A DNA stretch of 60,797 bases from Rhizaria sp. SCN 62-66 (lineage: Eukaryota): assembly GCA_001724265.1 (NCBI GenBank), contig MEDY01000155.1:1-60797 (forward strand), read 5' to 3'. The position numbers and the translations under genes are program-made. Below, piece after piece: positions 1 to 54,831 of the stretch (positions are counted from its first letter, which is position 1; each line of letters begins with the position of its first letter). The notes beneath the pieces are model-generated. The model was given only the letters and a program-made list of their open reading frames with translations. It was not told the DNA's origin and did no database searches.

Positions 1-2666
1 AACGTCTCTCGCGCGAGCGCAAACGCGTGCGCGGGAACCATAACGGTCTCGAGCAAGTGCGCCGTCGACAGCCGCGCCGCGGGCTCGCTCAGCGCGCGCT
101 CCGCGGCGACCGCGGCCTCGGCGTCGGCCAGCGAGGGCCACAGAGGCGGCGCGGCGCGGTCCGCGGCCGCCATCGCGGCAACCGCGGCGGGCCGCAGCAG
201 CACAGTCGACGCGTCCAGAGTGACCACCGCACCGCACGCGACGCTTCCGGCCACGGCACGCGCGGCTGCAGCCAGCGGGGCGCAGTCTGGGCCTGCAGTG
301 GGGCGCTCTAAGTGGCCGCTGTTGAGGAGAGTGGATAAAAGAAGGCACGCGGCCCGGGCAGCAACGGCGCCGCCGACGGAGTGGCCGACAAAGACCACAC
401 GCGTCGGGGACTGCTGCTGCTGTTGCTACTGCGGCTGCGGCTTGTTATGCTCCGGCTGTTGTGAGGACAGCGCCGAGACGACTGTGAGCACAACCGCGAG
501 CACGTCGCGAGCCAGCGCCTCGGTGCCCAGCGCCGCCACCACGGGCTCCGGCGCGGGCGCGCGCGTGACGGCCACCGCGGCGGCGACGGGGCAGCGGTGT
601 TCGCCGCAGCCGCACTCGCACTCACAGTCGCACGCGCAAGGGCAGGCCGCACAGGCCGCGTTGCTGTTGCTGCTGCGGTTCACGTCCGCAGCGCGCCCCG
701 CGCCAAGTCCGGACCCGCAGCGGCACTAACACTCGCACGGAGGGCGGTCCGCGCTCGCCCGCCGCCGCTGCCGTGTCTGCACAGCAGCAGAAGCAGCAGC
801 GTGAGCAACAGCCGCGCCGGAAAAGGCGCCACCACTACTCTCACCGCCGGTTCTGCTACTACGGTCATCATCGCCGTCGTCGTCATCAGACTGCGGCGGC
901 GGCGGTGGCGCGATAACACCCCCGGCGCGCGCGCGCTGCCGCTGCCACCGCGCGCTCTCCGGACAGCGCGACTGACCGTGGGCGCGCAGGTCCACCGCGA
1001 GCAACCCCAGCGCCGGCCGCGGGGGGTAACTGTGAGCGGGCGCGGGGCAACCGTGGGCAGCGCTGGCGGCGTTTGAGTACGGCGGAATCGGTGACATAGC
1101 AGAGATCGAGGGCATTAGCGCTGTTGATGGAGGCACAGGTAGCGAGCTTGCAGTTGCAGATGTGACAAGCAAATGCTGCTGAGATTGCTGCTGAAGCATA
1201 TGCTGCATTTTCAGAAACTGCTACTGTTGCTAATGTTGCTGCAGCAGTTGCTACTTTTGGGACGCCGCAAACGCGGTGGCGGTGGCGTACCCGGCCGCCG
1301 CCGCCGCGGCCGCCGCGGAGGGCGCGAGGGTAGAGAACCGCGCCCACGGCGGCGGCAATGCGGCAGAATTACTCTCTGACAGCTGTGACGACTGCGATGA
1401 CTGCGACGTTCGACCGAGCCCCGGTGTGAATCCCTGCGTCGACCCCGGTGCCGGCGGCCCGTACGCGCGCGCGTGCTCCGGCGCACCGGGCTGGTGCTTG
1501 TCGCCAATCGCGGCGCGACCGTGGCCGTCGGCACTGCTGCTGTGTGGAACGGGCGGCATGACGGTGAACCCGGCGCGGAACGACGTCAGCGGGGCAGGAC
1601 GCTTCAGAAAACCTGACCGCGCGCTCCCGACCACACCCACCCCCACCCCCGCGCCCGCGTTCACGTCTGCGTTTGTGCCTGCTCGAGAGCTCGACGCAGA
1701 AGCAGATGTCTCTGTCTCGCTTGTACTCGGATTAGCATTGAACATAGGGACAAGAGGACGCACTGACGCCGCAAAGCCACCAGTCCGCTGTGGGTGCAGT
1801 TGCTGCTGACGTTGCGCTGACATGGATGTCGCCGCGGCCACTGCGACATCAGCCGCGGGCGCCGTCGCGTGCGCCGCGAGCGCCGCGGCGTGCGCGCGCG
1901 CGTTGGCCAGCGGCTGCAGCTGCGGCGGCAGCAGCCTGTCGAGCGTCTGCGCCAGCGCCGCGAAGGACGACGCGGCGCACGACACGCCATGCACAAACAC
2001 CAGCAGCGTCGACGGCAAAGGCAGAGGCAGAGGCGGCGTTGACTGCAGAGGCAGCGGAGCTGCAGGGCTCGCGCCAGAGCTCATGCCAGAGCTCACGCTA
2101 GAGCTAGGGCTCAAGTGCGAGATCGAGTTCGAGTTTGAGTTACGGTCAGAGTTCGCGCTTGTAGGAGCAATGGCAAGCGACTGTGAGCACGCGCTGCCGC
2201 CGCCGCCGGTGAGGGCGCTGGCGGGCAGCAGGGGCAGGCCGGCGGTGTAAATGCGGAACACGGTCTCGGTGGTCGCGTCGTCCGCGTCGCAGACGTCAGC
2301 GGTGCCCGTCGCGCATGACGCCGAGCCCGTGGCAGAGGCGGCGGCCTGAGATGACGTCGCTGATGGAGTCGCTGTCGGTGTTGCCGATGGTGTTGATGTG
2401 AGCGGTCGCTGTGGGGGAATCGGGAGGTCGTACGCAGCGTCAAATCCCGGGATGGGGCGCAGTGTGTGTGCCGGGTGCGAGTGTCCGATGCCATAGGCGC
2501 CCATCTGGCCTCCTGTAACCGCCGCGGAAGCCGGTGCCAGCGCCGACCGTGAGACCCTCCCTGACAGGCCGAGGTGCAGAGTCGCGACGGAGGGTCCGCT
2601 GAGAGGCTGCAGCAGCGTGGGAACAACCACACCGTGCACGCGGCACGTGGGCAGCGCGGGCTGCAT
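1..2666 (-). CDS. Alpha/beta hydrolase, protein phosphatase methylesterase 1 (PME-1/PPME1)-like; 3' end runs off the window; contains 5 in-frame TAG codons
   Basis: Track ORFs 1251..2666, 726..1208 and 426..683 and the unlisted frame below 425 share one reading frame, broken only by TAG at 1251-53, 1230-32, 1221-23, 726-28 and 426-28. Hydrolase motifs lie in the right order across the breaks: LLVFVHG (~1985-2005), LLAVDLRAHGQS (~970-1005), nucleophile elbow VFVGHSVGGAVA (GHSVGG 369-386), then VVTLDA. The frame stays open to the window edge. Confidence 0.8.
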
Positions 2667-2980
2667 CGGTTGCAGAGGCGCTGAGTGTGTAGAACAGGTG
2701 GATAGGCTCTCGATACGGTCTAGGTCGAGCAGGTCTTTCGGGGTTCTGGATGTGGTGGGGGTAGAGGAACAAGTTCAATCGGTAGTCTGTGTCCGTCACT
2801 GCGCATAAAATTAATGGGAATAGAGACATGTATGCGCAAACTATATTGTATAGTAATTATAATTCAAAATGTTATCGTTTGTCTCACTTTGATTCATCTT
2901 TGATCTTCTCCACTTTGCTTCGTCGCGCACCCGACCACCACACCTATGCAGCAGCAGCTCCCGCACCTGTCCGCTGCAGC

Positions 2981-5900
2981 ATGAACCTAGTTCTGCTCGG
3001 AATCGCCGCGCTGCTGTTCCTCCTCGGCATCCTCAACGAATTCGGTGACGCCTTCGCCAATGCCGACGACTTGCCCGACGATGCCGCCGACGCACACTCA
3101 CAGTCTGCAAATGCGCAGTCTTCGGGCGCTGCGTCACAGTCGCAGTGCTCTGACGGCTCGTGCCGCAAGCCCCACTCGGCGCGTCGCGGCCCCGTGATGC
3201 GTCTGTTCCACACCTTCAAACACTACCTCGTGAACACATCCAACCCGCTGCTGCAGATGCTCTTCTCGCTCATCGTGCACGGTGGCTTCGGCGTCTACTT
3301 CGTCCAGGGCTACCAGTTCCTGCCTGCCCACTCGTTCCACCGATACTCGTCACCCGTCGTCTTCGGCGCCTGCCTTGTCTCGTTCTTTGCCGCGTCCTTT
3401 ACCGCGCCCGGCAAAGTCACCCGCCCCGCGCTCGCCGCGCGCGCCGTCGCCGTCCTCGACCTCGAGCTTAAGCAAAGCGGGAAGGTGACAACCTGCGCTG
3501 ACAACTCTGCCGCCGCCCCGCCGCCGCCGCTGCTATCTGACGCGTCGTTTGACGGCGCTCTGAGCCACCCTGGTCTGCTCTGCGCGCCGTGTGGCGGTCT
3601 GCCGCGGCCGCCGGGGTCTAAGCACTGCCACCTGTGCGCGCACTGCGTGCCGAGCTTCGACCACCACTGCGTGTGGATCAACGCCTGCGTCGGCGCGCGC
3701 AACCGGCGCTTCTTCCTGGCCTTTCTCTTCACGCACGCGCTGCTCACCACCTACGGCTCCTACGTTATGGAGTGCGTGTTCCGCGAGATCTATGCCCACC
3801 ATGGCCTCGCCACGGCGACCTACGCGCACCCCACGACCGGCGCCGCGACTCCGCTGACGGCGTGGACTGTGACGCGCTTCTTCGCGCAGGCGTACCCGGC
3901 GCTGTGGGCGCTGTGCATCCTTATTCACGTCATGGGCGTTGTCGTTGCGCTCTTCGCGGGCTTCCACGGCTATCTGCTGCTCACTGGCCGGACAACGCAC
4001 GGCGACATCGTAGCGCACCGGGCCGAGCAGTGGGGCAAGGCTGAGGCCGTGCGCCGCGACGATGCCGCCGCTGTGGTTGCTGCCGCCGCGGACGCCGCGA
4101 TGGACGACGCTAGCGGCGGCAGTGAAGGTAACAGCAAGCAGTCTAAGTCACAGTCTGAGTCCGAAGTGAAACAGATTGATGCGAGTAAGCGTGCGGCCGC
4201 TGAGGCTGATCTCAAGGCGATTGCGAACGACGTCGAGTGGATGGGCGGTGTGGTCGGCAAGCTCGTCGAGTCGCTTGCTGCCGCGCAGGCCGAAGCTAAG
4301 GCCAAGGCGAAGCTTGCACGCAGCGAGAGCCAGAGTCGGAGTAAGGGCGCAGACGCGGAGACTGAAACGGCGAGCGTCAGCGTCGCAAACGACGACAGCG
4401 ACAATAACGATGACGATGGTGATGACGGCGCTGACGTCGACACTGGTGATGCTGCTGGTGCGCCTGCAGCGAGTGACAGTGTTGTGCGCGACCGCCGTCC
4501 GACCGCTAAGAGCAACGTCAAAGCTACTGCGGCCACCAAGGCCAAGACCAAGGCCGACAAATCAGTGTCTACTCCTTATGCGACTGCTGTGTCCACTGAG
4601 GAAGGCAAGAACGGGTGCGCCGTGCCCGGTTGGTCGGCATCCCCCTGGCCGCTAGCTCAGTCACCCGCGGCGCTGTCTAAGTACCCCTTAGCCGTGGCGC
4701 TGATTGAGAAGCTTGCCCGGGCCCCCATGGATATAGCCGCCGCCCGCCCCCGCTCCCGCCCCCTCACTATGGGGGGCGCCACCGTGAAGCCTGCTGTCGC
4801 GGCGACGGTGAGCCTGGCAGAGGCTGCTGCCGCCGGTTGTGTGCCCGGGGCCGCCGAGCTCTCACCGCTGCCCGCCTCGCCCACAGTCGTGCCCACGGTC
4901 TCCCCCGTGCCCACAGTCACTGCGATTGGAGCGAACACGAAGCTGCAGATTGGGACCGAGAGTGCTCTGTGTACGCAGACCGAGAGCGCTTTGTTCGCCG
5001 GTGCAGACTGGCCGACTCTGTTGCAGCAGCCCTCGATCGCGTTCCTGACGCACCTGCTGCCCACAGTCGTCGCCGCTGACCTGGACTCCGCTCCCGCTGT
5101 TCCTGCTGAGTCAGCAACTACTGATGAGTCAGCAGCCGCGCAGACCGGGATTCCGATCGCGGTGTACTCGCGGTTGCTGCTGGCGTCTTCGGCGGCCGCG
5201 GTGGCCACTCTGGCCGGCACGCCCGTCAAGCCCGAGCTCGACCTCGACGTGCTCTCTCTGCCCATCGCGAACAACAACAGCAACAGCAGCAGTCGTGGTA
5301 AGGGTGAGGATGTGAGTGTGAATAACAAGATCAAGGCTTTGCTGTGCACAGTCCCCGTGTCCGTGAATACTCATGCTAGTATGCATGGTTCATCTGGTAC
5401 ATCTGACCCCACAGGTACTACGTGTACCACTGGTGCGCTGTCTGCGCGCGCCACCGCGCTGGTCATCGCGGCGTGCAACCTCGACTGGTCCATCCTCTAC
5501 GACAACGACGATGTCGACTGTGATGGCAGTCAGAACAAGAACGCGGAAGAGGACTGTATGAGCCCCGAGAACCAGCTGCGCGCTGCCGCCGCGTTCGCCG
5601 TTGCCGCCGCGGCCGAGCTGCTGTGGGGCGAGCAGGCCTGGGCGCGCTACACGCAGAGTTGCAGCAACAGCAACAGCAAGAGCGTTGAATCCAAGTCCGC
5701 CGAGGGCGAGACTGAGACCGATGCTGAGGCTGCGAACGAGGCTGAGGCTGAGACTGCGGCGACCGTGGTCGTGGCTGGGGTGACCGTGAGCACGGCCGCC
5801 GCGGCCGTTGCTGCCCGCGCGCGCCAGTGCTTGTCGTACCCTTTCTCGGTCGTTCCCGCCGCGGCCTGCGCGCGCGCTGCCCGCGACCCCGCTCTCGCGC

Positions 5901-6285: not shown

Positions 6286-8256
6286 TTACGCAGGTGCTCC
6301 AGCTTGGTAGCCACGCGCAGCAGAGGCAGCTGCAGCGTAGTAGGCGGCGGCAGCAGCGGCGGCGCGTGCGCCCGCGTACTGATTGAAGTACCGGCTCTGA
6401 GCGCGCTGTTCGCTAGAGTAGCTGTAGCTGTAGCTGTGGCTGTGGCTATGCTCGTAGCTACGGCTTTGACTGTTGCTACCGTTGTCGTTATCGCCCTCAT
6501 TAGACGCCGATTTAGAGCGGTCATGTGCAGACGCAGAGCCCGATTCCGTGTCGGCATCAGTGTCGCAGCCCATACTTGCACTACCATTGCGACGGTGAGC
6601 AGAATACGCCTGATGACTGTGGGTGGTCAACGAGTAGAAACACGTCGCCAGGGTCGCCGCCACGCCCACAGTCACGACGTCGGCGAGCGACAGCACAGCG
6701 GCACCGGGGCCTACCTGCCCCGCCGCAGTGGCAGCCAAAGCAGCCTTAGTCGGGGCCAACGCAGCAACTGCCGCGGCTGCACAAAGGCTGAGAGAACCAG
6801 TTGCTTGCGCAATGGCGCCTGCAGCGGGGGCAAACGCGGTCCAGAAGCGCCGCCCACAGTCACTCTTTGTAATCGTGTGCTCGCGGTCATTCTGAGTGGT
6901 CTGCTCACGTAACAGGTTAAAGCGCGCAGGAAACGCGGCCGCCAGGAGCACTGCAAGAGTTATAGTTGCAAACACACTAAGCGTCAGGCCAGCAAGAACG
7001 GCGTGGGGATCCGCACTGCCTGCAGACACTGTCGCAGCGCTGCTGTTGCTCGTATTCACGCCTGCAAAGACCATTCTGGTGGCAAACCCAACCGCGGGCG
7101 CGGCAGCAGCGGTAACCGCAACAGTCGCAAACAGAAGCACAACGGCCTGCTGTGCGAGCGCGAACGCCGTCTCCGCGAGCGCTGCGGCGGCTGTGACGGC
7201 CAGCGCGGCCGCGGCGGGCACGGTGAGCTCTGCAAGCGCCGCGGACGGGGCGAACAGCAGCGGCAAATTGGCGTCGACGCGCACGCGCGCCAGGAACGCG
7301 CCCACCGTGGCGGTCATCGTCTTCGCACGGGCGCTCCTGTACGTGATCGCGGCGAGCGCAGATGATAGCAGCGAGGGCCCGGCGGCGGCGGCGCGCAGGA
7401 TCAGCCACGCGAGCAGGGCCTGGACGCACAGAGCACTGACAAGCCACCGCAGAGGGGCGCTGGAAAGCAAATGCAGTGCAGCAGCCGTAGGTCTTGCGGG
7501 GAAGCGCGAAACGCCCGTGGTCGCGCTTGCAGGTTGAGTATCAACACCTGTGTTGTAGCTCTGAGACCACTCGTCGCTCGAATTATTGTTGGTGTCTTTT
7601 GTAGTGAATGAAGACACTGTGAATCGTAAGGGTTGACCAAACAACGGCTGCACTTGCTGCGGCAATGGCAACGCTGTGCTATTCAACACAAATGAGCTCG
7701 TGCGCTCTGCCCCGCAGCCCTCACAGTCAGTTGCACGTGCGGCAGGACGAGAGCCTAAGCTTGAGCCGGTAGCGTCCGCATGCAAGAGCGCCTCAAGAGC
7801 GGGACAAGGGGGGTCTACAACAGCGCCATTACTTGAAGGCAGTCTTGTTGCGTAAGGCGTTGTGATATACATGGCGAGTGCTGCCGCGAGTGCAAAGAAC
7901 ACCAGCGACGCGCGTAGCGAGCGGAGACCCGCGACAATCGTCTTGCGTGAGACCGGGGACTGTGCAAGCCCGCTGTCGTCAACCCCTGCAGAGGAGCTTG
8001 GGTCCGACTGCGGGGTCGCGGAGGCACCTTGTCGATGTGTATGAGACTGCGAATGCGCCGATGCAGAGCCAGAGCTTGTGTTCGCGCCTGCGCGTGTGAA
8101 CGGCTCGTGGCCAGAAGCAAAGTTTGGCGTGTTATGCTCACTGCGGGTGCCGGATGCATAATGTCGGCGCGGAGTGAAGAATGACGGCGGGGGAGAGCTA
8201 AAGCCCCAGGACTGCCTGCGGTGGGGCGCGGCGCCCGAGGGGAGGTCACTGTCCAT
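6286..8256 (-). CDS. Hypothetical multi-pass membrane protein, Ala/Ser-rich
   Basis: Uninterrupted ORF of about 656 codons from ATG 8256 to TAA, bounded by AT-rich spacers, with several hydrophobic stretches. No family recognised. Confidence 0.65.
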   Translation of the reverse strand: MDSDLPSGAAPHRRQSWGFSSPPPSFFTPRRHYASGTRSEHNTPNFASGHEPFTRAGANTSSGSASAHSQSHTHRQGASATPQSDPSSSAGVDDSGLAQSPVSRKTIVAGLRSLRASLVFFALAAALAMYITTPYATRLPSSNGAVVDPPCPALEALLHADATGSSLGSRPAARATDCEGCGAERTSSFVLNSTALPLPQQVQPLFGQPLRFTVSSFTTKDTNNNSSDEWSQSYNTGVDTQPASATTGVSRFPARPTAAALHLLSSAPLRWLVSALCVQALLAWLILRAAAAGPSLLSSALAAITYRSARAKTMTATVGAFLARVRVDANLPLLFAPSAALAELTVPAAAALAVTAAAALAETAFALAQQAVVLLFATVAVTAAAAPAVGFATRMVFAGVNTSNSSAATVSAGSADPHAVLAGLTLSVFATITLAVLLAAAFPARFNLLREQTTQNDREHTITKSDCGRRFWTAFAPAAGAIAQATGSLSLCAAAAVAALAPTKAALAATAAGQVGPGAAVLSLADVVTVGVAATLATCFYSLTTHSHQAYSAHRRNGSASMGCDTDADTESGSASAHDRSKSASNEGDNDNGSNSQSRSYEHSHSHSYSYSYSSEQRAQSRYFNQYAGARAAAAAAAYYAAAASAARGYQAGAPA

Positions 8257-8712: not shown

Positions 8713-9537
8713 TCACGCGTCCATCTCGGCAAAAGGGTTTGCGTGCACGGTGATCGACTCGATCTCGATGGCCTCCGTGGGGCGGTTCTTCTTGTCCACG
8801 GGAGCCTCTTCGATCAGCTCCAGGACGGAAGTGCCGTAGATGAGGCGGCCGAAGACAGAGTTGACGTTGTCCAGGTGCGGCAGCTTGTCCATCGTAATAA
8901 AAAACTAAGGCGCGCGCAGCAAAGATGAAGCAACGCGATGAAAAAGCGAACGTGAAAGATTGGGACGTGAGCGAAGCAAACAAACAAGAGGAGTTATGTC
9001 ATAGCATGGGTGAAGATCGTGGAGTCAAGAGAGCCATGCATCATGAAAGGCGACAATGAATAGTCCGCAGATATCATGTTGTGCCGTACCTGCGAGCCGT
9101 TAGTGTTGGGCCCCTTGTTGGCCATGGAGAGCACGCCGCGCGCGTTGTGGCGCAACGACTCGACGATCTCATCGTCGAAGAATGGGCCGTAGATGGACTC
9201 GCCGCCCTTGCCCGTGCCCGAAGTGTCGCCGCCCTAAAAGAAGATAGTAAAAAGCAGTAAAACAATAGCGTGGGTGAGCATATGAGCGATTATGGTGTGT
9301 ACTGAGAGACTGTGACAAGCGCAACTGATTGAGAGAGACGTTGAGCATAGAGCATTTGCGCAGACGAGCGATAGAACGTACCTGGGCAATAAATCCGCGC
9401 ATGACGCGGTGAAACTTGGTGCCGTTGTAGGCCTCACTGGCGGCAAGAGCGAGAAAGTTCTTGCAGGTGCGCGGCGCGAGGTCGCAGTAGAGCTCGAACT
9501 TCATGTCACCCTTCGATGTGTGGATGGTCACCGACAT
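8713..9537 (-). CDS. PPIL3: Peptidyl-prolyl isomerase-like 3 (cyclophilin), 3 exons
   Basis: Exons 9537-9382, 9233-9090 and 8904-8713 splice to [19 protein letters not shown]...[27 protein letters not shown]...[16 protein letters not shown]...ITVHANPFA. Both introns are GTACG...AG. TGA stop. Confidence 0.95.
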
Positions 9538-9874
9538 GTGCAAAAGGGGGCCTACAGATCGAGAGGAACAACAAGTGCAAAAGAAACATAATTATAAAAT
9601 GTAAGCGGGAAGTGATCGTTGAATATCGGCCGTTTCAAAAATATATCATTTGACGATCAAACGGGAGCACATGAGCAAGAATGAACAAACCTAACAATCG
9701 CTCCCATTTCGCTGTCCACGAACGGCTTGGTCGCTCTTGTGGTTGGCAGCAATTTTCGTCAAAAGTTCGAGATCGGTCGGCGGCTTAACCTTTTTCGGCT
9801 CGGTCAGTCTGAGACGAGACGGGCCATGGCCAAGATGGCCCTCGTGAACAAAGGTAACTTTGAGCTTAACCAGA

Positions 9875-11645
9875 ATGCGTTTCATTGCTTTCTTCATTGC
9901 CATGCTTGTTGCTGGCGTCATGTCCGAGGTCTTCTTCTCTGAGAAGTTCAACGACGGTGGTACGTCCGCTTTTATTACCGAAATACGAAACCCGCAACTC
10001 ACCCATGAGCGATGCTGACATCAGCAGTCATATCCAGCCTCAGTTCGCATGACAAACTCATGATTCAGATAGTGCCCTTCTAGTACTATAAATTTAAGTA
10101 AGTCGCTCACCAATTCTCACTTGTCCCTTCTCAATTGCTCCGTTTTTTCTGCGTCTACAGAGGCCTGGAAGTCCCGCTGGACCGTCTCGGACCACAAGAA
10201 GGACGAGGGCACCGCCGGTGTTTGGGACGTCACTCCCGGCAAGATCTACGGCGATGCCGCTGCCGAGGCCGGTCTGACCACCACCGAGGACGCTCGCTTC
10301 TACGCCATCTCTTCCCAGATGAAGGAGTTCTCCTCCGTCGGCAAGACCCTCGTTGTCCAGTTCTCCGTCAAGCACGACCAGGGCATCGACTGCGGTGGTG
10401 GCTACATCAAGATTGCCCCCGCTGGCATTGACCAGACCAAGTTTAACGGCGACTCCCCCTACAACATCATGTTCGGCCCCGACATCTGCGGCGCCACCCG
10501 CCGCATCCACGCCATCTTCAACCATGAGGGCAAGAACAAGCTCATCTCCAAGGAGGTCTCCTGCGAGACGGACAAGAACACCCACGTCTACACCCTCATC
10601 GTCAACGGCGCTGACCTGACTTACCAGATCCTCGTCGACGGCGAGAAGCGCCAGTCCGGCAACCTCGAGGACGACTGGGATTTCCTCGCCCCCAAGCAGG
10701 TCCCCAACCCCGCCATCACCAAGCCCGCCGACTGGGTCGACGAGCCCATGATGGTGGACCCCGCCGACGTCAAGCCCGCCGACTACGACGACATCCCGGC
10801 CAAGATCCCCGACCCCGACGCGTTCAAGCCCGATGACTGGGACGAGGAGCTCGACGGCGTGTGGGAGGCCCCCACCATTGCCAACCCCGCCTTCAAGGGC
10901 CCCTGGCAGCCCAAGAAGATCGCTAACCCGGCCTACAAGGGCGCCTGGGAGCAGCCCAAGATGGACAACCCCGCCTATAAGGTACGCTTACGCCGCTATA
11001 ACGCGCACGGAACGCAACAATACCACACTGCTATGATCAAGTCTCCGTGTCCTGCACACGGGAGGCCTGTTGCGCGGTGCGGATACTGTTTCTCAGATCT
11101 TGCCTTTTGTTATTGAGTTCACTTTTTTCAATGTGTATTTATATGATGATCACATATCCGTGGCATACGGTGCAACGACTTTGTCGTTTGGCTACCGCAC
11201 TTGGTGCTTACACATCTTACCTACATTCTCTGACTTTCTGCACATGAATAATCTTACTCTTAAACAAAACAACAACGCTTCGCAATCGCTCCACTGCAAT
11301 CTTGTCTATGTCCGAACTCTCCCTCTCACATATTTCTTCCCTTCCTCTTCCTCATGTTTCCCACCACCTTAGCCCGACTCCACCATCGGCCAGTACAAGT
11401 CCAACGCGCTTGTCGGCTTCGAGATCTGGCAGGTCAAGGCCGGCACCGTGTTCGACAACATCCTCATCACCGACGACGTCGAGCTGGCCGCCGCTGAGGC
11501 CGCCGAGATGGCCGCCCGCCGCGACGGCGAGCGCGCCAAGATCGCCGAGGTGGAGAAGGCCGAGGCCGACAAGGCCCGCGAGGACATCGCCAAGGACCTC
11601 GCCGACGAGCCCGCTAAGGATGCCGAGAACAAGGATGAGCTCTAA
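9875..11645 (+). CDS. CALR: Calreticulin, 3 exons
   Basis: Exons 9875-9959, 10161-10981 and 11373-11645. Signal peptide MRFIAFFIAMLVAGVMS, motifs KHDQGIDCGGGYIK and IMFGPDICG, P-domain KPADW/KPDDWD repeats, EIWQVKAGTVFDNILITDD, and terminal KDEL followed by TAA. Confidence 0.98.
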
Positions 11646-12262: not shown

Positions 12263-15200
12263 TCATTGGTGCTGCTCAGGCGCAGGCTCCAAGGGCGAGT
12301 CAAAGCATTGCAGGTTCGATGCCTCGTCTCGCTTAATGCTTTGAATCGCACTACTTGTGTGACTGTGCGTGGCTGTGAGCGTGGGCGCTACACTAGGACC
12401 TGGAAGCTCCGGCAAACTGTCGTCGCGACTCAGCGACAGCGACTGAGAGGGTGACTGTGGTTGTTGGGTTCCCTGTGGGCGAGTGAGCAAGAGCTGTGAG
12501 TGTGACACAGAGTGGGAGCGCGAGAGCGAGTGCGAGTACGCGCGATTAGGGAGGCCGGGTTGCTCCTGTGAAGGCAAATGTGACTGTGACTCGGCCGGTT
12601 GGATGGGCGTCAGTATGGGTGGCTGCACTTGCGACTGCACAGCGGGCGAGTTCAGTGATGATGAGGGGCCGGGAGAGAATGGCAAGTGCAATTGTGGCAA
12701 TAGTGGCGACTGCAGTGAGGGCTGCTTATGTTGATGCTGCTGTCCATCCGTAGGCTGTTTAAGTAAAGCACAACCGTCTTCATCTTCAGCTTCAGTCAGT
12801 GGTTTCCCTGAGCTGCTATTGGCAGCTCGCTTAATCTGTCTATGCAAAGAAGACGCCGCGATGGATTTTGGCTGCAACTGCGACTGCGAAGGAGACTCTA
12901 GAGCGAGTCGTGACTCTGACTTTAGCAGCAGAGACGATGGTGACTTCCTGCAACTCCCTTGCGTCTGGGATAGCATCCGCGCTCGATCAGTGTGGTTGAT
13001 AGCTGCGCAAGTAGGGCGTTGGACATTCTCACGGTCACAGTCGCTGCCAGATGTTGTATCGACATCAGCGGCCTCATCATCGCCGTGGTCGTTACCGTCG
13101 CTCACCAGCGCAGATGGCGCTGTAGTTATCGCTCTTATGTTATTAGTTGCGCTCTCAATGGCAGTAGGCTCCACTAATTCTGAAGAAAGCCCACTACTGA
13201 GTGGGCGTGAAGTTGATGACGACTGTGGACTCACTGTTGCCGTGCTTTCGGATTGCGGCTTGCGCGATTGTGAGCATTGCGATTGCGAACGCGTTGAGTT
13301 CGGCTGTGTTGAGCGCGCGAGAGGCGACTGTACCCGACTACTGGAGGCCGAGTCAATTTTTAACTGTACACCTGAATTGCGCACACCCACATTATTAGAG
13401 GGTGGTGTCTTTGCGTTTGCTAACGCCTGCTGGGTGGAAACTAAAGCAAGTAATGCCGGTGCGGGATCTTGATTTTGCGTCTGCAATGAAGACGGCTCCG
13501 GTAAATGTAATTGTACATGAGGGCTTTGCGGCACCAGTGTCTGGGCTGCGGCGAGCGCCTGTGACCGATAATCCGTGAGATCTGGCGGTGCGACTGGCTG
13601 TGGCAGAGAATGCTGCACATGTTGCTGTAGCAGTGATGTTGGCAGCGGTACAGGCTGTGATGCAATTGAAAGCCGGGCCTGTGCCCATTGCCGCCACTCC
13701 TCCGACTGCAAGCTCAGCGTACTCAACTGCCGGTGACTACTGCGAACAAGCTCGTGTTCTTCCCAGTGATCGTCCTCGCGGTCACACTCGCCGGGATCAC
13801 AGTCTCCGTGTCCACAGTCGGCAAGGTCCTCGCCTGCGTGGTGTGAGCGCGCGCGCTCAGCCCCAGTAGCGCCACGTCGATGTTGCCGCAGACCGGGGCT
13901 TGTGCATGCCACTGCGGGCGAGCCGGGCGCTGGTAATGAGAGTGCAAATGACACGCGCTGTTGGTTGCCGACAACGTGAGGGGCATGCAGCGTAGTTACT
14001 GCCAGCTTTGGAATCGTTGCCACTATTGCTGTTTGGGCTGCAGTTGGAGTGGCATGCCGTGTGTCTATATCCTGAGTGATGGTGAAAGGTGGCTGCATCG
14101 GCATGCGCACCGGAAGCGCATCTGCTTTTGTCGCACCAGCAGGATCCACGGCACTGCAGTTGGCAACTATCTTTCTTGCATCAACGTGCTCATTGTCTGT
14201 CATGGCAAGTGATCCATCATTGGTGCTGTCAATAGAGTCGCTGTAAACTACGTCAGCCTTTGTCGCAAGGATCCTAAAAGAGCTGTCGCTGTCCGCTGAG
14301 CCAAGCTGGCTGTTGCGCAGCTTGGTCGTAACTGTGGCAAACACACCAGCTGTGCGCTGGACCTTATTGTCCTCCTCCTCTTCTTCCTCTTCTTCGCATG
14401 ACTGATGCTGAGTGGCCTTAGCTCCGTGGTTTGCAACAATCGCAGACACCACATTATCAACAGGCAAGATGTTGCCCGCTTCGGACGTTAAATCCATTGC
14501 GACTTGCGCTGCAGCAACCGACTCTGCGACAGCGAGTAACGCAGTGCGGGCCATTTCCCACACGCCGGGCATTAAGTGGCGCAGCGGTGCGCGCGCTGCG
14601 ACCTCTGCGGCCGAGAGTGGGGCTGCATTTGAACGACTGTAAGGACACTGGGAGAAGACAAGGCATGGCACCGAAGCTACACGGCTACCTGTGATTGAGT
14701 CCTTTGTCGCGGCAGTGTGCCTGCGCAGGGTCTGCTACACGTGTGTAAGTTGAGTCGTAACGGGAATAAGAGAGTCGTAGTGAGTGCCTGTGAAGCTAAG
14801 TGTCACCCCAGTCCAGTCCTTACTTGTTGTTGCTAAGTCTTTACGCTGACAGTCAGCATGGGTGTGATTAGCGGTTGGGCCCCAATGTGGGGTAAGAGCA
14901 GCATGGGCAAGAGCGCGCGCGCTCCAATGATGGGTCACAGTTGTCGGCAAGTTTAGTTGCGTTGCAAGTGTTGACTGTGCAGCGCTGTTTGAGGCTTGCA
15001 AACAACAACTTGAGCTCGCGTCACTGTGCATTGCTGCAACGTTGGGCAATAATGGAGGAAGAGGTGGCAGTGCGGGCAGCTGCGGCATGTCATGAATTAG
15101 AGTTAGGGAGACAGCACTGTTTTCTATGCTCGGGTTTTGAAGACATGAGCATGTAGGAAGCATACATGTGCAGTCGCTCCCGTAAGCTTTCATCCACTGC

Positions 15201-17398
15201 CCCCGATGCTGACTCAACAGCGCTGCGTGTTCCATTTCGGCCGCAGGACCAACACTAATTTCAGCGGCCTCTAGCCCGGCCTTAATAACAGCAGCTTGAC
15301 CCCACGGCGCCCGTCCAGCACCAACGTAACGCTGACCCCTTGCCTTCTCCGCAGCAGCCCCGGCACCAGCACTCATGACAGTAACAGCGGAAGAAGAAGG
15401 CGCACCGGAGTGATGCTGTACTTCTGTCACGCTCGCCGCGCAACCATCGCTTCTCAGAGTGGCTGAACTTGCTGTGGCCGTAACTGTCGCGAGACTTGCA
15501 ACAGAAAGCCGCCGCCAGTGCGCGGCCGCAGCCCCCGGCCCGCCTGCAACAGCGGCGTCCCATTGCCACTCTGCCCGCGCGCCCGCCAACGCATCGCTGC
15601 CGCGACGACCTGACGCGCTGCTGCTATCGTGGTTGTGGTCGTGGTCGACACTCTCACCGCGCTTACTGCGTCCTTTAAACGGACCAGTAATAACCGCAGG
15701 ATTAAGGGATGGTGGCGCGCGCAACAGTCTAATTGACGGCAGGGCAGCAGTGGTTGGAGATGGCACCCCTGGGAGCTCCTCGGCTTTATTACCTTTCTTG
15801 TTATTGCGGTTGCGGACTCTGATACGCTCGGCACTTGATCCGCTGCTACTGCTCAAAAGACTACTGTCGACATTTACCTTGCGCGTAGGCCTTATAGCTG
15901 GAACGGCAGCGGCAATAGCAACAGCCGGTGAAAGCATGCCAGTTCGGTTGCTGACATTGCTGTCGACGGCTGTGACAACCGCACTAGGCACACTGTCTCC
16001 GTTGTCATCAACTGCGTTTGCGCTAATGCCGCGATACGCTGCATGTGGAACAGCCGCAGGTAACTGTAGTGCGCAGGTAATACCGACTGCAACATCACTG
16101 TTGACTACGCTGCCCTTTTCCGCAAGTTCTGTTTTAGATGTGGCGTTTTGCTGATACTCCTGTGCTCGAGATAATTGCAGATTGCTGTCAACGGCTCCAT
16201 TGCGACTGGATCCTGGTGGCAGTGCTGCTGTTGCAAGAACGGTGCGCACACACCGCAGCGTAGTCTCAAAGTCCAGCCGACTCCAGCCTTGCTGCAACAC
16301 AGGATCGGGCGTATATTTGTGTAGAGTCAACTGTGTGCCGCACTTACACTCGTGATCAGCGCTGTTCAAGCTGCTTGAAACAGCCTGCGCATTGAGAAGA
16401 GTAAGCTTTTGGTCAGCAAGTGCCACATGTTTGGAACATGTGGTAACATGCTCGTTTTTGTTTGCATCACGTGGTTTGAACGCATACACGGTGATCTCGC
16501 ACCCGTACACGTCCGCGGCCGCCTGCAGCTCGACCTCGCCGCCCCACTCGCCCAACCGTGCCAGCTTTGCCGCGTACACCACCGGCGGCGCGGCCAAAAA
16601 CGCCTCGTACAGCTGCGGCGGCGCGAGCGCAAGCCAGTGCGCAATCGCTGTGCGCACTGCGCGGTGCGCGCGGGGAGTGCCATAGAGGGACCGAGCGAGC
16701 GCGCGGAACAGGCAGTTGCCGTCACCTTGCTCTGTCAGCAGCGAGAAACGCGCCGGAAACGGACACCGCAAAGACACTGCGTGTCTTGCTAATGAAGAGG
16801 CTAAGAACACTGATTGGGTTTGCTTCTGTGTCGCATGTGTGACGAACGATGGTGGCGGTGTGGGAGGCACGCATGGGGCTATGAGGGCCAGTCGCGCGGC
16901 TAGGAGCTTGCGCAGGTTAGTAAAGCGAGGCTGATGCGCGGGCAACAGTGGGGGCAATCCAGCGTCATCTCTGATTGAGATTGTGTCTCTGCTCGCGTTC
17001 TCGGTCGCGTTGCTGTTTTGCGTGCTGTCGGGCAGCGCGGAGTCGATGAGGCGAAGCGCGAGGGCAAGCTGGTCGTTCTGAGACAGAGAGCGCACGGCTG
17101 AAGCATATGCGCTGTCAAGTGAGGCCCGAGTATCTGCAGCCTTAATAACAAAGGTGGCACTAGAGAGATTTAAGGAGCATTGGTTACCGCAGTGAGAGAC
17201 CTGAATGGGTGAAGCACACGGAAGGAAAGGAGAACCTCGTTTGAGCACTACGTACGGGGACAATAGCGCAGGCGCTTGAGAAACTATAAGACTTTTCCTG
17301 GGCTGAACGCGCGTAGATGGACTCAATGATACGTCATCTTTTGTAAAAGGCTCGACAGTAGCCGTCGGTGAAGGTTGTTCAAGTTGGTGTGCCTGCAT
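12263..17398 (-). CDS. OTU-family deubiquitinase, about 1711 aa, with 1 in-frame TAG
   Basis: GDGNCLFRA (Cys at ~16713), WGGEVELQAAADVY, and HYDSL (His at ~14781). Track ORFs 14735..17398 and 12263..14671 are in frame and joined by LTHV-TAG-QTLRRHTAATKDSITGSRVAS with no other stop. Ends at TGA. Confidence 0.8.
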
Positions 17399-18881
17399 CT
17401 TCCTTCAGTTCGGTGATGAGCGGCACACACAAAAATGTCTCTTGAAACGCCACCCAATAAAGGATTCCTACAAAAATAGAAATTGAAATACGTTGTTAGT
17501 ATTAAAGAAAATTATTATAGCATGTCAAACAATCTTTTGACGACAGATTCAATGCAGGCAGCGTGATGATAGATCTCACATTGTTGTTTTGGTCGACTTG
17601 AACAAAGCATCAGCAACAAAAAATCGGGTTCGTATTCGAGCGAGCACATGACAACAGTCGGATCTCTAAATAAATAATAGATAATTATATTTTTAAAGTC
17701 AGAACTGCATGTTCTCAAGCTCAGCTTGTCCGTTCATGTCTATGTTTTCAAATCAGCGTCTGAGTCGCTTGAACAGCTCATATCGTGTAAGAGCTTCACA
17801 AAGACACATGTGTGTCACAAATATATGGCATTCTTTTTGTACAATCAAGTCTGCTTTTCTATGAAGAAATTTAAGTTCATTGTTGAAACTTGATTCATCT
17901 CTTTGTTGAAAGGGGTGAAGGGGCGTGAGTAATCGTAACATTAAAGCACGATGTTTTGACCCAGTATCCGGACATCGCCGATAGCGCAAAAGTCTTCAGC
18001 GAGTCAAAGAAATTGGTAAACTTGGCATTCATATACTGTTTCCGTTAACGTTGGGACCAGTTGGTGCTAGATATCGATGAAAAAGTGGGCGACGAGGTCG
18101 ACAACCTCGGTCACGGTGAGCTTCGAGATCTCTTTGACGTCGGACTCGCCAGAGTTGATGTGGACAAATTGACCTGGTTCAGTCCTTACCATGGTTATAA
18201 ATGTGTGCCTATCTATTTTTGTTTAGTTCCGCCGCTGTTTGAAACAGTATGCACTTCGTCAAACTTACCACCTTCTTGCGAGCCGCCGTTATTCGTGGTG
18301 GGAACGACAGCTACATAAGTTTAGCCGCTATAATTAGACTGGGTTTTTGTGCTATGTAGAGTATATTGGCTCGAGATAAAAGACCTCCCGACGTACGGGC
18401 TCTTCCGCTCTGATCCTACTCTTCACGTAAAGTGAATTCGCAAAGAATTTGCTCCGTACTACTGTCATTACTGTTGAGCGAGACAAACAAAGTTCAAGTT
18501 TATTTAAATGACGACCAACGGGATAGCACCCCTTATTGTCACCGTACTCATGTTAATTTGAGTATCACCCGTCGCCTCATCGTCGTCGACAACGACAACG
18601 AGCAGCGTTAAGCTTACCAGCATTAGCTCGAGTGTTAGAAGCACTAGTGCTCGCGCACTTACGCACGCGAGTGAAGTACTTGTGCCGCCGATTGTGCTTG
18701 TGGCCAATGATAAGACCGGCTGTGTTGCTGCGCTTTGTAAGAGAAAAACAGAAGCGAAAATCGTGGCGTAAAGGCATGTCATTGTAAGTGTGTACGTGAC
18801 ACTTATGCTCTCTCGGCCATCTCAAAGCGACAAGAGACTAATGCTGCGGCTTAACACACGATTGAACTGCCCACGGTTCGC

Positions 18882-19872
18882 TCAGAAGCGGAAGTTGACG
18901 TTGCCGAGTCCCTGCGCGGCCTGCTTAAACCCGCGGGGGTTGGCCCACTCCGAGTTTAGGTACGAGTCCTCGTCGGCCTCAGCGAGCCGCTTGTCCTCCT
19001 CCTGCTTCTTGTGCCACATCGCGATCATTTTCTGCTGCGTCTCGGCGTCCACCGCGGGCTCGCGCTGCGGGGGCTGTGCCGCGCGCTCGCTCGTGAGCTT
19101 CACCTTGACCAGCATCTTCTCGTTGGTCCCGACGAACTTGCTCAGCGCTGCGTCGGAGCCACGCGCGATCTTCTTACCGGCGAACCAAAGCACGGCGCCG
19201 GCGGGATCGAAGACGTCCTTGGCATGCTGCGTGCCCGCAAGCTCCTCGGCGTCGTCCAGCGCTTCGCGGACAGAGTCCCACTCGGGCAGCCCCATCGGGA
19301 AGGCCATCATGACGGCGCCGCGGCACTCTTGCAGCGCCTCACCCACCTTGGCCTCGTCGATGCCCGCGCGCGCCTGCAGCGACAGCGCGGAGGAGACGAG
19401 GCGCTCAGCGGCGTCGGCCACGCGGTCAAGCGTCTCTGCAAGCTGCTGTGAGGGCGGGGCGCCGACGCGGAGCCCGCTGGGGTCGGAGCACGTCGCAGCA
19501 GTCGGCGCGCGGCCCTTGGCGACGGCCGCGAGCTGCTCGTCGGTGAGACTGTACAAAAATAAAGGTTAAAGACAGAATAGAGGACGTCATGATCAGATAC
19601 GTGTGCCTATATCTAGAAAACCCCGCGAAGTACATATATTAAGTGGTTTTGATTTGTTATGCGGAGTAATTTGAGACGTACCCGCGCTCCTCAATGGGCT
19701 TCATAGGGCCGTAGAGGGCGAGCTCGTGAAGGCCGGCGGCGAGGCGGCGGACGCGGTTGCGGAGGTTGTGGATGCGCGCAACCTTAGCACACACCTCGTC
19801 CGCAGAGTCAGAAACCTTAACCTCGACGATGTATTCGTCGCCCATGTTGTTGGTGACCTGGAGCTTCACCAT
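18882..19872 (-). CDS. CFAP298: Cilia- and flagella-associated protein 298 (C21orf59), 2 exons, 285 aa
   Basis: Exons 19872-19682 and 19548-18882 rebuild YGPMKPIEERG|LTDEQL. Also DPSGLRVGAPP, GAVMMAFPMGLPEWD, LWFAGK, FVGTNEK, REPAVD and DEDSYLNSEWANP. TGA stop. Confidence 0.93.
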
Positions 19873-41834: not shown

Positions 41835-44666
41835 ATGGAGCTTACTCACGCCGTCCGCGAGGTGATTGGGTCCGTGCTGTCGCCCTCAGCTCGCGCTGCC
41901 GCGACCCAACTGGCCCGCGGCACTCGCCTCACGTCGACTGACTACGATGTCACGCGCACGGACTTCCACATTCCCCGCGCCTAGATTCTAGACATGGTCG
42001 ACATTGAGCTTCCCGCTACACCGAGCGTATCTGAGCTTGCGACACCCCACGACGACGGCGCTCTCCGCGATGCGCTGTCACGACTCGCAGCATCAGTCGA
42101 CATCGTGGGTCATCTTTATCACCGCTACCTGACTGCCGTCAAGTTTATGAAGAAGCGCCGCGAAGAGGCCGCCGAAGAGCTTGAGGCGGGTGGCTCAGAC
42201 GAGGAGGTTGTTGACACTGATATGACTAACGGCGGTGACGATGGTGATGATAGGAGCGATATCAACAACGCAGATGAGTAGCAGGAGGAAGCGAAGGACG
42301 ACAACGACGATGAGGCGGCCAACAACAGAGACACCAATGCCGCCGATGAGATCAACAACCACGAAAACGGGGACGCTGACGCCGAGCATCTGATCGACGA
42401 CGAAGACATTCCTCTGATCACCGGCACAATCGCCGAGATCAGGGAGCGCGTCAGTGCCACCGCCGCCGCTGTGCGTGAGGGCGCGAGCAACCTCAAGTAC
42501 GTTTTCCTCTGCAAGCGCGTGCTGCGCTTTCTGCGGCGCCGCTTTGAGCATTTCTACGACACGCCCGCCGCGCTCGCCGAGACGCTCGCAGCGCTGACGC
42601 CATTGCTGGGCTCGCGCGATCAGATCGACGCGACGCTGACGGCCGTGGCGGTGCGCGGCCTGGTTATCGCGGCGCCGCGCCGCCACCGCGGGCGGTTTGC
42701 GCGCGCGGCTGCGCTACCGATGTACGCAGCGCTGCTGGCTGCGCCGCTGACGAGCCCACTGCTGGTGGAAGCGCTGGCGAACTGCCTTGATTACTGCTGT
42801 ACGTACAGTGAGCGGGCCGTGTTCAAGGTTTATGCGCTCGGCAGCCCGGTTCCGGTGAGACTCCCCGTTTCTGATCATGGCGATGAGGAAGCAGCGAATG
42901 GTTCCGATGAGATCACCAACGTCAAGCTCAACGATGATGCGCAAGATCCGGAAAGTTCACAGTGCGCCTCTGACCACTCAGGCGTGGACCTGCTACCAAC
43001 GTCATTCGACAACTGCGCAGAGTTCGCGCTGTTGCGGCTGGCAGAACGTGCACTGCGCACAGTGCCATGCACGCAGAGTGCATACGGCGACATGGCCGCT
43101 GCGCTTGTGACGTGTGCTATGAAGTGTCTCGAGAACCGTCACGGCGCGTCTTACGTGGTCACGGATCTCTTTACGAGCAAGTGCATCACGGCGCACTACG
43201 CGGCGTCGCGGGTGTCCGCGCACTCGCTTGTTGTTGCGCCGTTGGTCGGGCTTGTCTGCAAGGCATTTCTCGACGATACCACCTCGTACATTGTTAACGA
43301 CGACGACGCGATGAACGCCAGCACCGATGCGAGGGCCAAGCGTGACCTATTTGTCAAACGGGCTAGCCACCGAGAGCGCTTGCAGCAAGTTATTGAGATG
43401 TCACGCGACCTGATTGGCGCTCTCGTCAACAACAACCTTGACACGGCAATGAAGCTGCCGTTTGAGAAGCCTGAGTTCAACTCTGCATTCCTGATTGACG
43501 ACTTTGATAGCGCGCTTTGGTTGCACAAGGGGCACGTAGTCGATGCGTGGCGCGCTGCCTGCGACACAGCGCTTGCGGCGGTGCGCGCCTCTGTGGGCCC
43601 GGGCGTGGCGGCGCAAATCGCCGCAGTGCGCGGCCGCGAGGAGACCAACATCCACGCATACATCAACGCCGTCCTCGCGTCTAAGAACCGGGACAGGATT
43701 TGCATTTCAGTCCCGGCCGCTCTAAGCAAACACGACCCTGTGGCGGCGCTGTCGGCTGAGGCGCTAACCGCGAACATGATGAGTCTCCTGCCGCTGCTGC
43801 CAGTGGCGCCTGCTCCGTTCTTTGAGAAGACCCTCTTCGTCCCTTGGTGCGATCTCATGACCGCGTTCGTCAAACAAGACAGCGGCGTGTCCATCGACTT
43901 TGACAACTTCATTTATCTCCTGACCACGGTGCGCCACGGCTGCGGGTTTGCGTTTCACCGCCTGCTTTCGCCGCCGGTTTACGCCGCCGGCCACCGCCTG
44001 GTGCAGCCCGTGGTCGACCTGCTGGGCCCGCTGACGTCCACACCGACGCTCAAGTGCGTCACGCGCGGCCCGCTCACTGCGCGCGACACGGCCGCGGGTG
44101 AGCGCTGGAGGGACGGCTACGCGTTGCACGAGGACGGCACGCCGCCGGTGCCGCGCGACGCCGTGTCCGCCGGCGCCGACCTGTCGCAGTCGCACCTGGA
44201 CGCGCTGCTGGCGCTGCTGCAGATCGGCGAGGTCGACACCGTTCACTGGGCTGCGTACCTGCTGATCCTGTACGTGGAGCTCGACTACTTGTTCTACACC
44301 GCGCCCGGCTGGGAGGCGACGCCGCTGCTCGCGCGCGCAGGGCTGCTGCCTGTGATGGCCGCAACGACGCGCCGCTTGGGCGGCGACGTGACGAAGATTC
44401 TCGCCGAGCTGCTCGCGAAAATGGGTCCCATCCTCTGCAATATGGCCGCAACGCGCACAAGTAGTGGCAAGGACAGCAAGGACGGCCAGCCACAGCTTCG
44501 GCCGCAGTCGCAGCTGACCGAGTTCCAGCAGCAGTGGCTGCGCGAGAACGTGGTCGCCCCGGTGCGGACGCTGTGCGTGGACCGGGCGTTCGCGGCCGCG
44601 GTGGAGGCCAAGTCGTCCGACGTGGCGTGGCGGCGGTTCGAGAGAGAGCTCCTCACCGAGCTGTGA
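41835..44666 (+). CDS. Hypothetical helical (ARM/HEAT-like) protein, 943 aa, with 2 in-frame TAG
   Basis: ATG 41835 (MELTHAVREVIG...) is in frame with track ORFs 41994..42281 and 42471..44666. The only interruptions are TAG at 41982-84 (IPRA-x-ILDM) and 42279-81 (NADE-x-QEEAKD). TGA stop. The fold is an impression from Leu/Ala amphipathic patterning. Confidence 0.72.
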
Positions 44667-49534: not shown

Positions 49535-49857
49535 CGTGACTGTGGTGATTTGGGCTGAGGGCCGGGCGCGGGGCAGCCTGGTGCAAGGGTCGGTCGTGGT
49601 GGCTCTCAGGTCTGGTTTCTTACAAAGATGCTATAGAACGTAAAAAGAGGACTTGAATTGTTTAATTAAAGTATTATATTTGAAATGGTGACGATAATTT
49701 GGGATATTAACTGCACCCATGTTAACGGACGATGTGCGGACCTTTGGTGTATTCTCTTAGCACGAGCTTTGATCTTTGCCCTCGCCAACCGTTGGGCTCT
49801 TTCCATCTGCGCTCACCCAGCTTTCCCATCGCACTCTCTCGTTCCTACACCAGATCC

Positions 49858-54467: not shown

Positions 54468-54799
54468 TCACATGCGGCGCCTGAAGCCGGCGGGCACCAT
54501 AGTCACCTCACAGCATGCCTGGAAGGACTGCAACACTTCGGCGTCGAACGGCTCGTCCCCGCTGTCGCCCGCCGCTGTCACTGTGCCCGCCACGCACGAC
54601 ACCACGCGGCCGACGGGCACTACGCCGCGCAGCAGGCTCACGGGGCACGGCTTGAAGACGATGAACCACGACGTGTCATTAGGCCCAATCATAAGCTGCG
54701 GTGTGAAGGGCGTGACGCTGCGGGGGTAGAACAGCACCGTGCCGACGATATACGTCGCTGCGACATCGGCGTCAGCGCCCACAGTCGTCGTCGTCGTCG

Positions 54800-54831
<32 letters not shown>

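Follow-up and report, generated by a model that had tools for sequence, protein, structure and literature searches.

In-frame TAG codons in a hydrolase-like gene point to a probable sense role for TAG in a GC-rich eukaryote from wastewater

Does TAG still end proteins in the eukaryote that contributed contig MEDY01000155.1 (assembly GCA_001724265.1, deposited as Rhizaria sp. SCN 62-66)? The question is raised by a hydrolase-like gene at the start of this contig, whose conserved motifs lie in a single minus-strand open reading frame (ORF) interrupted by TAG codons. The whole contig of 60,797 nucleotides (nt), here called the window, is nuclear DNA of a GC-rich, intron-containing eukaryote from wastewater or bioreactor communities. 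A preliminary description, made from the letters of the window, held that the TAGs of this gene are decoded as glutamine (Gln) in a protein resembling the methylesterase PME-1. Our analysis leads us to regard TAG as a sense codon in this organism with fair confidence, TAA and TGA being the terminators; we infer its translation from the reading frame, from RNA contigs and from homology.

The frame of the hydrolase-like gene (P0001) opens with an ATG at 2666 on the minus strand and runs off the window start, giving 888 codons at 3..2666. TAG is its sole in-frame stop type, with five occurrences and neither TAA nor TGA, and the hydrolase motifs LLVFVHG (1986-2006, the HG motif), DLRAHG (within AVDLRAHG, 975-998) and GHSVGG (within VGHSVGG, 369-389) all share it, just as had been described. 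Read with the standard code, the same stretch is split into separate ORFs. The TAGs fall at 1253-1251 (residue 472, next codon CAA), 1232-1230 (residue 479, CAA), 1223-1221 (residue 482, CAG), 728-726 (residue 647, followed by TGC in a Cys-rich stretch) and 428-426 (residue 747, CAA, in a loop between a conserved helix and the nucleophile strand), and are numbered here in that order. Their contexts, SQK-x-QLLQQH-x-QQ-x-QFLKMQH, KPQPQ-x-QQQQQS and CEC-x-CRC, were quoted correctly in the preliminary description, as was ADE-x-QEE at 42279 in another gene. The stretch without TAA or TGA that follows each TAG of the hydrolase-like gene measures between 141 codons, where the window ends, and 416 codons. 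A protein predicted on a longer public contig (P0126) starts just past TAG 5, is 100% identical to residues 757-888, and adds 215 residues beyond the window, reaching a C-terminal His motif; the frame therefore comprises at least 1,103 codons, which nothing but TAG interrupts. Codon usage contributes little further resolution. In a profile trained on 7,504 codons, frame 0 is the best over most of the gene and is not the best at the TAG cluster, at residues 630-646 or at residues 70-100; low-complexity sequence makes the profile too noisy to separate exon from intron. Strain differences within the gene give an equally unclear frame signal, with two of six synonymous and four of six situated near contig ends in low-complexity sequence.

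The TAGs belong to the genuine sequence and do not stem from misassembly. Run X3, which belongs to a study other than the likely source of the window, contains a DNA contig identical over 306-2468 with no differences, and the window recurs in bioreactor and wastewater runs of five studies, dating from 2015 to 2025. An exhaustive HMMER scan of 1.84 billion representative proteins returned four proteins, three of which are pieces of the hydrolase-like gene itself, as cut out by standard-code gene callers: residues 55-471 (P0124), 487-646 (P0125) and 757 onward (P0126). Gene calls in ENA, JGI and Logan assemblies have their boundaries at the same TAGs, and P0125 was found on four contigs. None of the close variants replaces a TAG with a sense codon; the P0124 cluster of the N-terminal piece has two members, each terminating at residue 471, the site of the first TAG. 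Public contigs with the same proteins extend up to 172 kb. Four variants of the hydrolase C-terminus (P0129-P0132) are 90-95% identical to it and are called only from residue 87 of P0126, near which they may carry another in-frame stop or a frameshift. Low-complexity stretches of GCC/CAG type, at 1293-1317, 5270-5292, 5657-5662 and 6343-6364, draw many foreign contigs, and the resulting depth spikes, false joints and loose ends make depth and joints unusable there.

RNA evidence comes from a polyA RNA library (run X6), in which three whole contigs are colinear with the DNA, at 525-787, 850-1102 and 1089-1325. They differ from it at one position (753), none and none, respectively, and never at a TAG. 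Jointly they span four of the five TAGs, the first three within 1089-1325 and the fourth within 525-787, as well as a GTACGC at 1290 and the acceptor candidates at 1147, 1121 and 1063. In the same run, a calreticulin contig ends exactly at the last exon base, 10981, and carries 33 further letters that do not fit the intron. A second RNA run (X10) holds pieces of only 22-29 letters and is evidence neither way. These data bear directly on a reading that retains the standard code, in which an intron starting at GTACGC 1290 removes TAGs 1-3 and unrecognized short or non-consensus introns remove the other two.

The host has introns, although its long ORFs at first suggest otherwise. Six can be defined in the window from homology breaks: two in the calreticulin gene (9960-10160 and 10982-11372, plus strand), one in a SpoU gene (45721-45875, minus), two in a cyclophilin gene (9234-9381 and 8905-9089, minus), and a further one at 19549-19681 (minus). 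All six begin with GTACG, the sixth bases being T, C, A, T, G and T, which is unusually strict for a set of spliceosomal introns. They are 133-391 nt long and AT-rich, and end in a pyrimidine tract followed by TAG (4/6) or CAG (2/6); their GC of about 0.36-0.48 and the pyrimidine counts given below are approximate. The stretch that holds TAGs 1-3 (1091..1260, minus) has a GC of 0.43-0.52, near that of the introns, and TAG acceptors are frequent enough that a TAG near an exon start is common in this DNA. The preliminary description had named the GTACGC at 1290 (1285..1290, minus) as a possible donor and had noted that no such donor lies beside 726 or 426, and both points hold, GG|GTACGC fitting the donor consensus and the only minus-strand GTACG sites in 1..2800 being at 2433, 1464 and 1290. 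It nevertheless gave the caveat too little weight, given that six of six introns share this donor and that TAGs 1-3 occupy the sole low-GC stretch of the gene.

Several features of the putative intron argue for its absence all the same. The contigs 1089-1325 and 850-1102 run colinearly over the donor and all three acceptor candidates, and in judging the preliminary description these contigs were the only argument named against an intron over the three-TAG cluster. GTACG is also frequent in uninterrupted ORFs, with 11 occurrences in the 19.2 kb of six ORFs and three in the hydrolase-like gene; GTACGC taken as a significant signal by itself was rejected, as the two strands of the window together contain it 28 times. 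The introns that would keep the frame, 1290..1147 (144 nt) or 1290..1063 (228 nt), have a GC of 0.51-0.54, and 12-14 of the 20 nt that precede their AG are pyrimidines, versus 14-17 in the real introns. With the acceptor that looks best, 1121, the frame would be lost and run into a TGA at about 885. For TAGs 4 and 5, GTACG is absent near 728 and 428, and the loop around the TAG at 428 matches that of the relative discussed below in length. Taken with these observations, we judge removal of the five TAGs by splicing under the standard code to be improbable.

Homology extends across the fifth TAG. Among the 1.84 billion representatives, the sole relative of the hydrolase is a protein of 313 residues (P0127) from a 20-kb JGI contig, 44% identical (E 7.6e-9), which aligns in one stretch with query residues 703-881, across the TAG at residue 747. 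The TAG-5 loop is of equal length in this relative, ungapped, and encoded there in an ordinary open frame; the flanking helix and nucleophile strand are conserved, and the 48 residues upstream of the TAG match P0127 by themselves (E 4e-4). As the next ATG after TAG 5 lies downstream of the catalytic Ser, a working enzyme requires this TAG to be read. Other searches were less productive: a word-index homology search with residues 205-888 gave no match, its 8000 scored candidates probably being swamped by low-complexity words, and scans of metagenome contigs for orthologous DNA, run with P0001 and with the three-sequence alignment A2, produced 591 and 596 pattern matches of which none was confirmed.

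The same logic applies to a second gene, P0003, on the plus strand at 41835-44663. Its relative is one environmental protein (P0137) on a 30.8-kb contig, 53% identical and with long invariant blocks in common. The TAG at 42279..42281 (ADE-x-QEE, residue 161 of the printed frame, next codon CAG) sits between every possible ATG of P0003 and its conserved block; because the next ATG past the TAG comes only after this block, which is invariant in P0137, P0003 must read the TAG to include it. The purine-rich sequence around 42279 contains neither GTACG nor a pyrimidine tract. In-frame UAG thus has homology support at two well-supported sites in two genes, the other six TAGs being less certain. One of these, at 41982..41984 in P0003 (plus strand, residue 62, next codon ATT), is of uncertain coding status. 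Another, at 14737-14735 on the minus strand with CAG as the next codon, links, without a change of frame, an 889-codon ORF containing an OTU domain and an ORF of 823 codons (12266-17404). A candidate intron here, GTAAGG(14823)..TAG(14735) of 89 nt, was rejected, since the resulting frameshift would meet a stop 16 codons on and leave the 823-codon ORF unexplained. Beyond these eight, the TAGs in extended ORFs are in AT-rich upstream sequence or are intron acceptors. P0003 itself encodes about 940 residues and matches no Pfam family.

Intact homology also bears on the possibility that the hydrolase-like gene is a decaying pseudogene, or encodes a truncated product of 471 residues, with the standard code in force and the TAGs arising as CAG-to-TAG nonsense mutations in Gln-rich stretches. 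The choice of codon would not be surprising in that case, for at this codon composition 52-63% of single-step nonsense changes give TAG, such that five TAGs out of five have a probability of 0.04-0.10. Five of the eight in-frame TAGs of the window are in this gene, the codon-usage signal is weak in places, and the calling of P0129-P0132 only from residue 87 of P0126 allows for a further break; the concentration of TAGs and the late-starting variant calls could mean weak constraint on the gene. However, over at least 1,103 codons the frame is never shifted and meets neither TAA nor TGA, and from usual ratios of indels to substitutions we would expect five nonsense hits with no frameshift to be very rare. 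P0127 shares the Ser elbow, candidate Asp and C-terminal His motif, all of them intact in the target; assemblies of several studies and years carry the same TAGs, and the gene is present in the polyA RNA library. Decay of this one gene would moreover leave the TAG of P0003 unexplained. A pseudogene or truncated product is accordingly very unlikely; we take the hydrolase-like gene to be real and transcribed, and to encode a very diverged α/β-hydrolase of at least 1,103 residues.

If TAG is a sense codon, genes should end elsewhere, and no end resembling a gene end uses TAG in the window. Among 19 ORF ends, some of which may not be last exons, 14 are TGA, five are TAA and none is TAG. Past these 19 terminators the next in-frame stop follows at a median of 12 codons, and the following 150 nt have a GC of at most 0.47 in 15 of 19 cases. 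Past the eight in-frame TAGs, the frame remains free of TAA and TGA for 141 to 893 codons at a GC of 0.49-0.75. The base that follows also separates the two classes. C follows 6/8 in-frame TAGs and 2/19 terminators (Fisher P 0.002), and G follows 0/8 and 11/19, respectively (Fisher P 0.008), so that TAGs and TGA/TAA terminators show opposite +4 contexts. At the level of codons, CAA or CAG comes after 6/8 TAGs, versus 8% after real Gln codons, and Gln precedes the TAG in 2/8.

In plant viruses and yeast, readthrough classically occurs at UAG-CAR. The excess of CAA/CAG after TAG would fit a second reading that retains the standard code, i.e. leaky termination, in which a near-cognate tRNA reads UAG-CAR and either yields a full-length minor product or allows the TAGs to tune its level. 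The rarity of TAG and its concentration in few genes are consistent with this also. Five successive leaky stops would nevertheless yield almost no full-length protein unless each were nearly fully read, and that amounts to reassignment. Furthermore, none of the 19 ends that resemble entries into untranslated regions uses TAG, which is unexpected where TAA ends five of the 19. We consider leaky termination quite unlikely as an account of these genes.

Given that TAG is sense, the surrounding sequence makes Gln its probable meaning, as the preliminary description had proposed. In a likelihood computed from the residues at positions -1 and +1, Gln ranks first, about 2 log10 units over the next residue, and it retains this rank when the three TAG-bearing genes are excluded from training. 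CAG to TAG is a single transition, and two of the eight TAGs lie inside CAG/CAA runs. The Gln excess stands after the TAG and not before it, an asymmetry that an effect of the neighboring nucleotides (C at +4) would explain as well as Gln identity would, and no TAG falls on a conserved column. A sense codon for Leu, Glu, Trp or Tyr must therefore be considered. Read as Leu, the three-TAG cluster becomes a Leu/Gln-rich, helix-like stretch; and ADE-x-QEE aligns with an acidic run (D) of P0137. The preliminary description thought that this context and CEC-x-CRC would also suit Glu, for which peritrich ciliates and Blastocrithidia are precedents. In the neighbor likelihood, however, Leu scores about 2.2-2.8 log10 units lower than Gln and Glu falls outside the best eight residues. 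A residue other than Gln is unlikely on these grounds. The relatives are uninformative here at the protein level, where the aligned residues are G in P0127 and D in P0137, both within low-complexity stretches; of the original assignment, the sense reading stands on several kinds of evidence and the identity on neighboring residues.

Against the reading of TAG as a sense codon must be set a number of observations. The RNA evidence of run X6 consists of Logan contigs, not reads, with a depth of 2.5-3.1; carried-over DNA or unspliced RNA may be present in the library, and among the listed RNA contigs no piece bridges the TAG at 426-428. A perfect GTACGC donor directly precedes TAGs 1-3, which occupy the one part of the gene with low GC. 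The count of zero TAG terminators is partly circular, as the standard code would end two ORFs (those of the hydrolase-like and OTU genes) in TAG. TAG is also rare and uneven: there are eight in-frame TAGs in about 13,600 codons, in three genes, or 1.8% of Gln codons if TAG is Gln (8 versus 342 CAG and 97 CAA); five of the eight are in the hydrolase-like gene, and 15 of 18 coding segments have none at all. Per Gln-like codons, the hydrolase-like gene carries 5/54 and all other sequence 3/393 (Fisher P 0.0009), and a RING gene of 2,432 codons has no TAG, though a settled Gln codon would be expected there. No TAG sits at a conserved alignment column; the residues aligned with them are G (P0127) and D (P0137), both in low-complexity stretches, which demonstrates neither translation nor Gln identity. 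Scans of the window for tRNAs and Rfam families gave no matches in either case. Finally, the OTU TAG is a weaker case than that of P0003, because it has no RNA cover (X6 is empty at 14017-15184) and belongs to a poorly constrained protein: between the joined ORF and a second strain (run X4), 10 of 11 differences are non-synonymous, which implies a protein that evolves very fast or is weakly constrained.

A mechanism for a sense TAG can be proposed that accommodates its rarity. The five UAGs of the hydrolase-like transcript would be neither spliced out nor used to terminate translation; instead, a tRNA with anticodon CUA, most probably a derivative of tRNA-Gln, would compete with an eRF1 weakened in UAG recognition. 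UAG would be kept rare and mostly before C (UAG-CAR), the context of least efficient termination, and would be tolerated chiefly where long proteins are of low complexity and weakly constrained. The rarity of UAG together with the UAG-CAR context suggests that decoding may still be in competition with release. A bolder version, which we offer tentatively and regard as doubtful, is that an undescribed lineage, common in wastewater reactors, stands midway in a UAG-only reassignment, the terminator role being lost and Gln decoding occurring only where a 3' C (UAG-CAR) weakens eRF1, so that UAG would be tolerated solely in long proteins where constraint is weak. If true, the organism would exemplify in nature the 'ambiguous intermediate' phase of stop-codon capture, within a nuclear genome rich in GC. 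In either form, the rarity of the codon and its C/CAR context would open the competition of a suppressor tRNA with eRF1 to direct test.

What protein, then, is interrupted by these TAGs? Its sequence supports an α/β-hydrolase fold with a GxSxG nucleophile elbow. Pfam Abhydrolase_6 matches the elbow only, at 23.2 bits and below its cut-off of 26.3, and Lipase_3 reaches 22.8 bits (cut-off 22) on the last 189 residues. VGHSVGG is thus assigned as the elbow carrying the catalytic Ser from its motif and from these Pfam matches. LLVFVHG is a putative oxyanion-hole strand by motif reading, without profile confirmation; AVDLRAHG resembles the typical strand-4 motif of α/β-hydrolases and weakly matches the same motif of the esterase 4rnc_A (E 0.42); and VTLDAS, at 207..224 on the minus strand, offers a candidate catalytic Asp that is kept in P0127. 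The Ser elbow, LDA(S/T) and a C-terminal GSHW/AGHW motif are common to the target and P0127. With the Ser of GHSVGG, the conserved Asp and His motifs may form a catalytic triad after the manner of PME-1. In the His motif, the variants P0129-P0132 have Q where the window strain has W (GSHW/GSHQ).

The preliminary label of PME-1-like fared unevenly in our searches. Sequence similarity to known PME-1 did not reach significance in searches against the PDB: phmmer with the whole protein found no match at E <= 1, the HG segment alone gave only chance matches to prostasin, and the A2 profile placed fungal lipases (E 0.005) ahead of PME-1 chains (E 0.075, 0.34, 0.75), all at the elbow. An AlphaFold2 model built on A2 was unusable (mean predicted local distance difference test score, pLDDT, of 32.5). 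Structural neighbors of the relative are more specific. The ESM Atlas model of P0127 has a predicted template modeling (TM) score, pTM, of 0.76, and PME-1 clusters from animals, fungi and plants occupy five of its ten nearest structure rows, at TM scores of 0.60-0.65. P0126, the target's own C-terminal fragment, has generic α/β-hydrolase neighbors (TM 0.38-0.48). Atlas feature scores to α/β-hydrolase clusters are 0.94-0.96. The modeled relative therefore makes PME-1-like a reasonable lead. The order of motifs, HG, DLRxHG, GHSxGG, Asp and C-terminal His, is that of PME-1 (PPME1), but unlike PME-1 the target has low-complexity insertions of about 330 and 190 residues between motifs. The protein is probably a PME-1-type methylesterase swollen by such insertions.

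How would such a code compare with known systems? Programmed readthrough at UAG-CAR, of the tobacco mosaic virus type, usually concerns a single stop and a minor extended product. The window is similar in having CAA/CAG after UAG in 6/8 cases, and differs in placing five stops within a catalytic domain. Ciliate genomes are generally AT-rich with tiny introns, and the phyllopharyngean group has gene-sized chromosomes; the window differs, at 50-73% GC and with introns of 130-390 nt. Among the reassignments described for phyllopharyngean ciliates, UAG is decoupled from UAA (PMC11687900), and a ciliate that decodes UAA and UAG differently has also been reported (PMC10553269).

The nearest likeness is to Iotanema spirale, in which UAG encodes Gln while UAA and UGA are stops, and to the rhizarian exLh (Sainouroidea), uncultured and known from sequence data only, in which UAG encodes Leu with the same two stops (Panek et al. 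2017, PMC5304391). For these codes, tRNAs with anticodon CUA were predicted and changes in eRF1 noted, and UAG makes up about 8% of Gln codons of I. spirale and is the terminator in none of 119 complete transcripts (PMC5304391). The window shares with I. spirale the in-frame UAG, its absence as terminator, the stops UAA and UGA, and the minor status of UAG (1.8% here). The scale of evidence differs, the Iotanema meaning being drawn from 204 UAGs in 126 genes at conserved positions, whereas here there are eight TAGs in three genes and none at a conserved position. Iotanema transcripts end mostly in UAA (104/119) and the ORFs of the window mostly in TGA (14/19); unlike Iotanema, the window genome is GC-rich and has GTACG introns. 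With exLh it has in common that UAG alone would be reassigned, in an uncultured protist represented by sequence. The Leu meaning found in exLh is disfavored here, the context preferring Gln over Leu by about 2-3 log10 units, a weak margin.

Few lineages are known to have a nuclear code in which the meaning of UAG has changed and UAA still serves as a stop (PMC5304391, PMC11687900, PMC10553269). Literature searches covering listings and abstracts found no description of a GC-rich wastewater protist with a UAG-only code. A new member of the UAG-only class is the likeliest classification of this organism, resting on eight codons in one 61-kb window. If true, it would be an independent case in a protist with high GC and introns, one that wastewater metagenomes have yielded repeatedly over ten years, and would add data on stop-codon capture. 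There is a practical consequence: as standard gene callers fragment its proteins (P0124, P0125, P0126), the gene content of this host in public catalogues is fragmented.

Beyond the genes that carry TAGs, the window encodes a DHHC palmitoyltransferase, a RING/DUF2921 E3 ligase, Dcc1, calreticulin, a SpoU methyltransferase and a cyclophilin, in addition to the OTU protease. Coding parts have 60-73% GC and spacers 35-50%. The calreticulin gene (9870-11645, plus strand) comprises three exons and ends in KDEL followed by TAA. Its nearest named relatives are about 50-55% identical, and its closest matches are environmental proteins at 65-79%; four environmental calreticulins are miscalled through the same intron donor (..YKVR..), so this intron position belongs to the whole clade. 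The X6 contig of the gene (10541-10981) has 19 differences in 441 bases, a divergence suggesting that the sludge also contains another strain or species related to this one. On the minus strand, an ORF at 48569-49630 includes a low-GC stretch (48776-49075) that resembles an in-frame intron read through, and an ORF at 54471-56765 contains a run of about 20 threonines.

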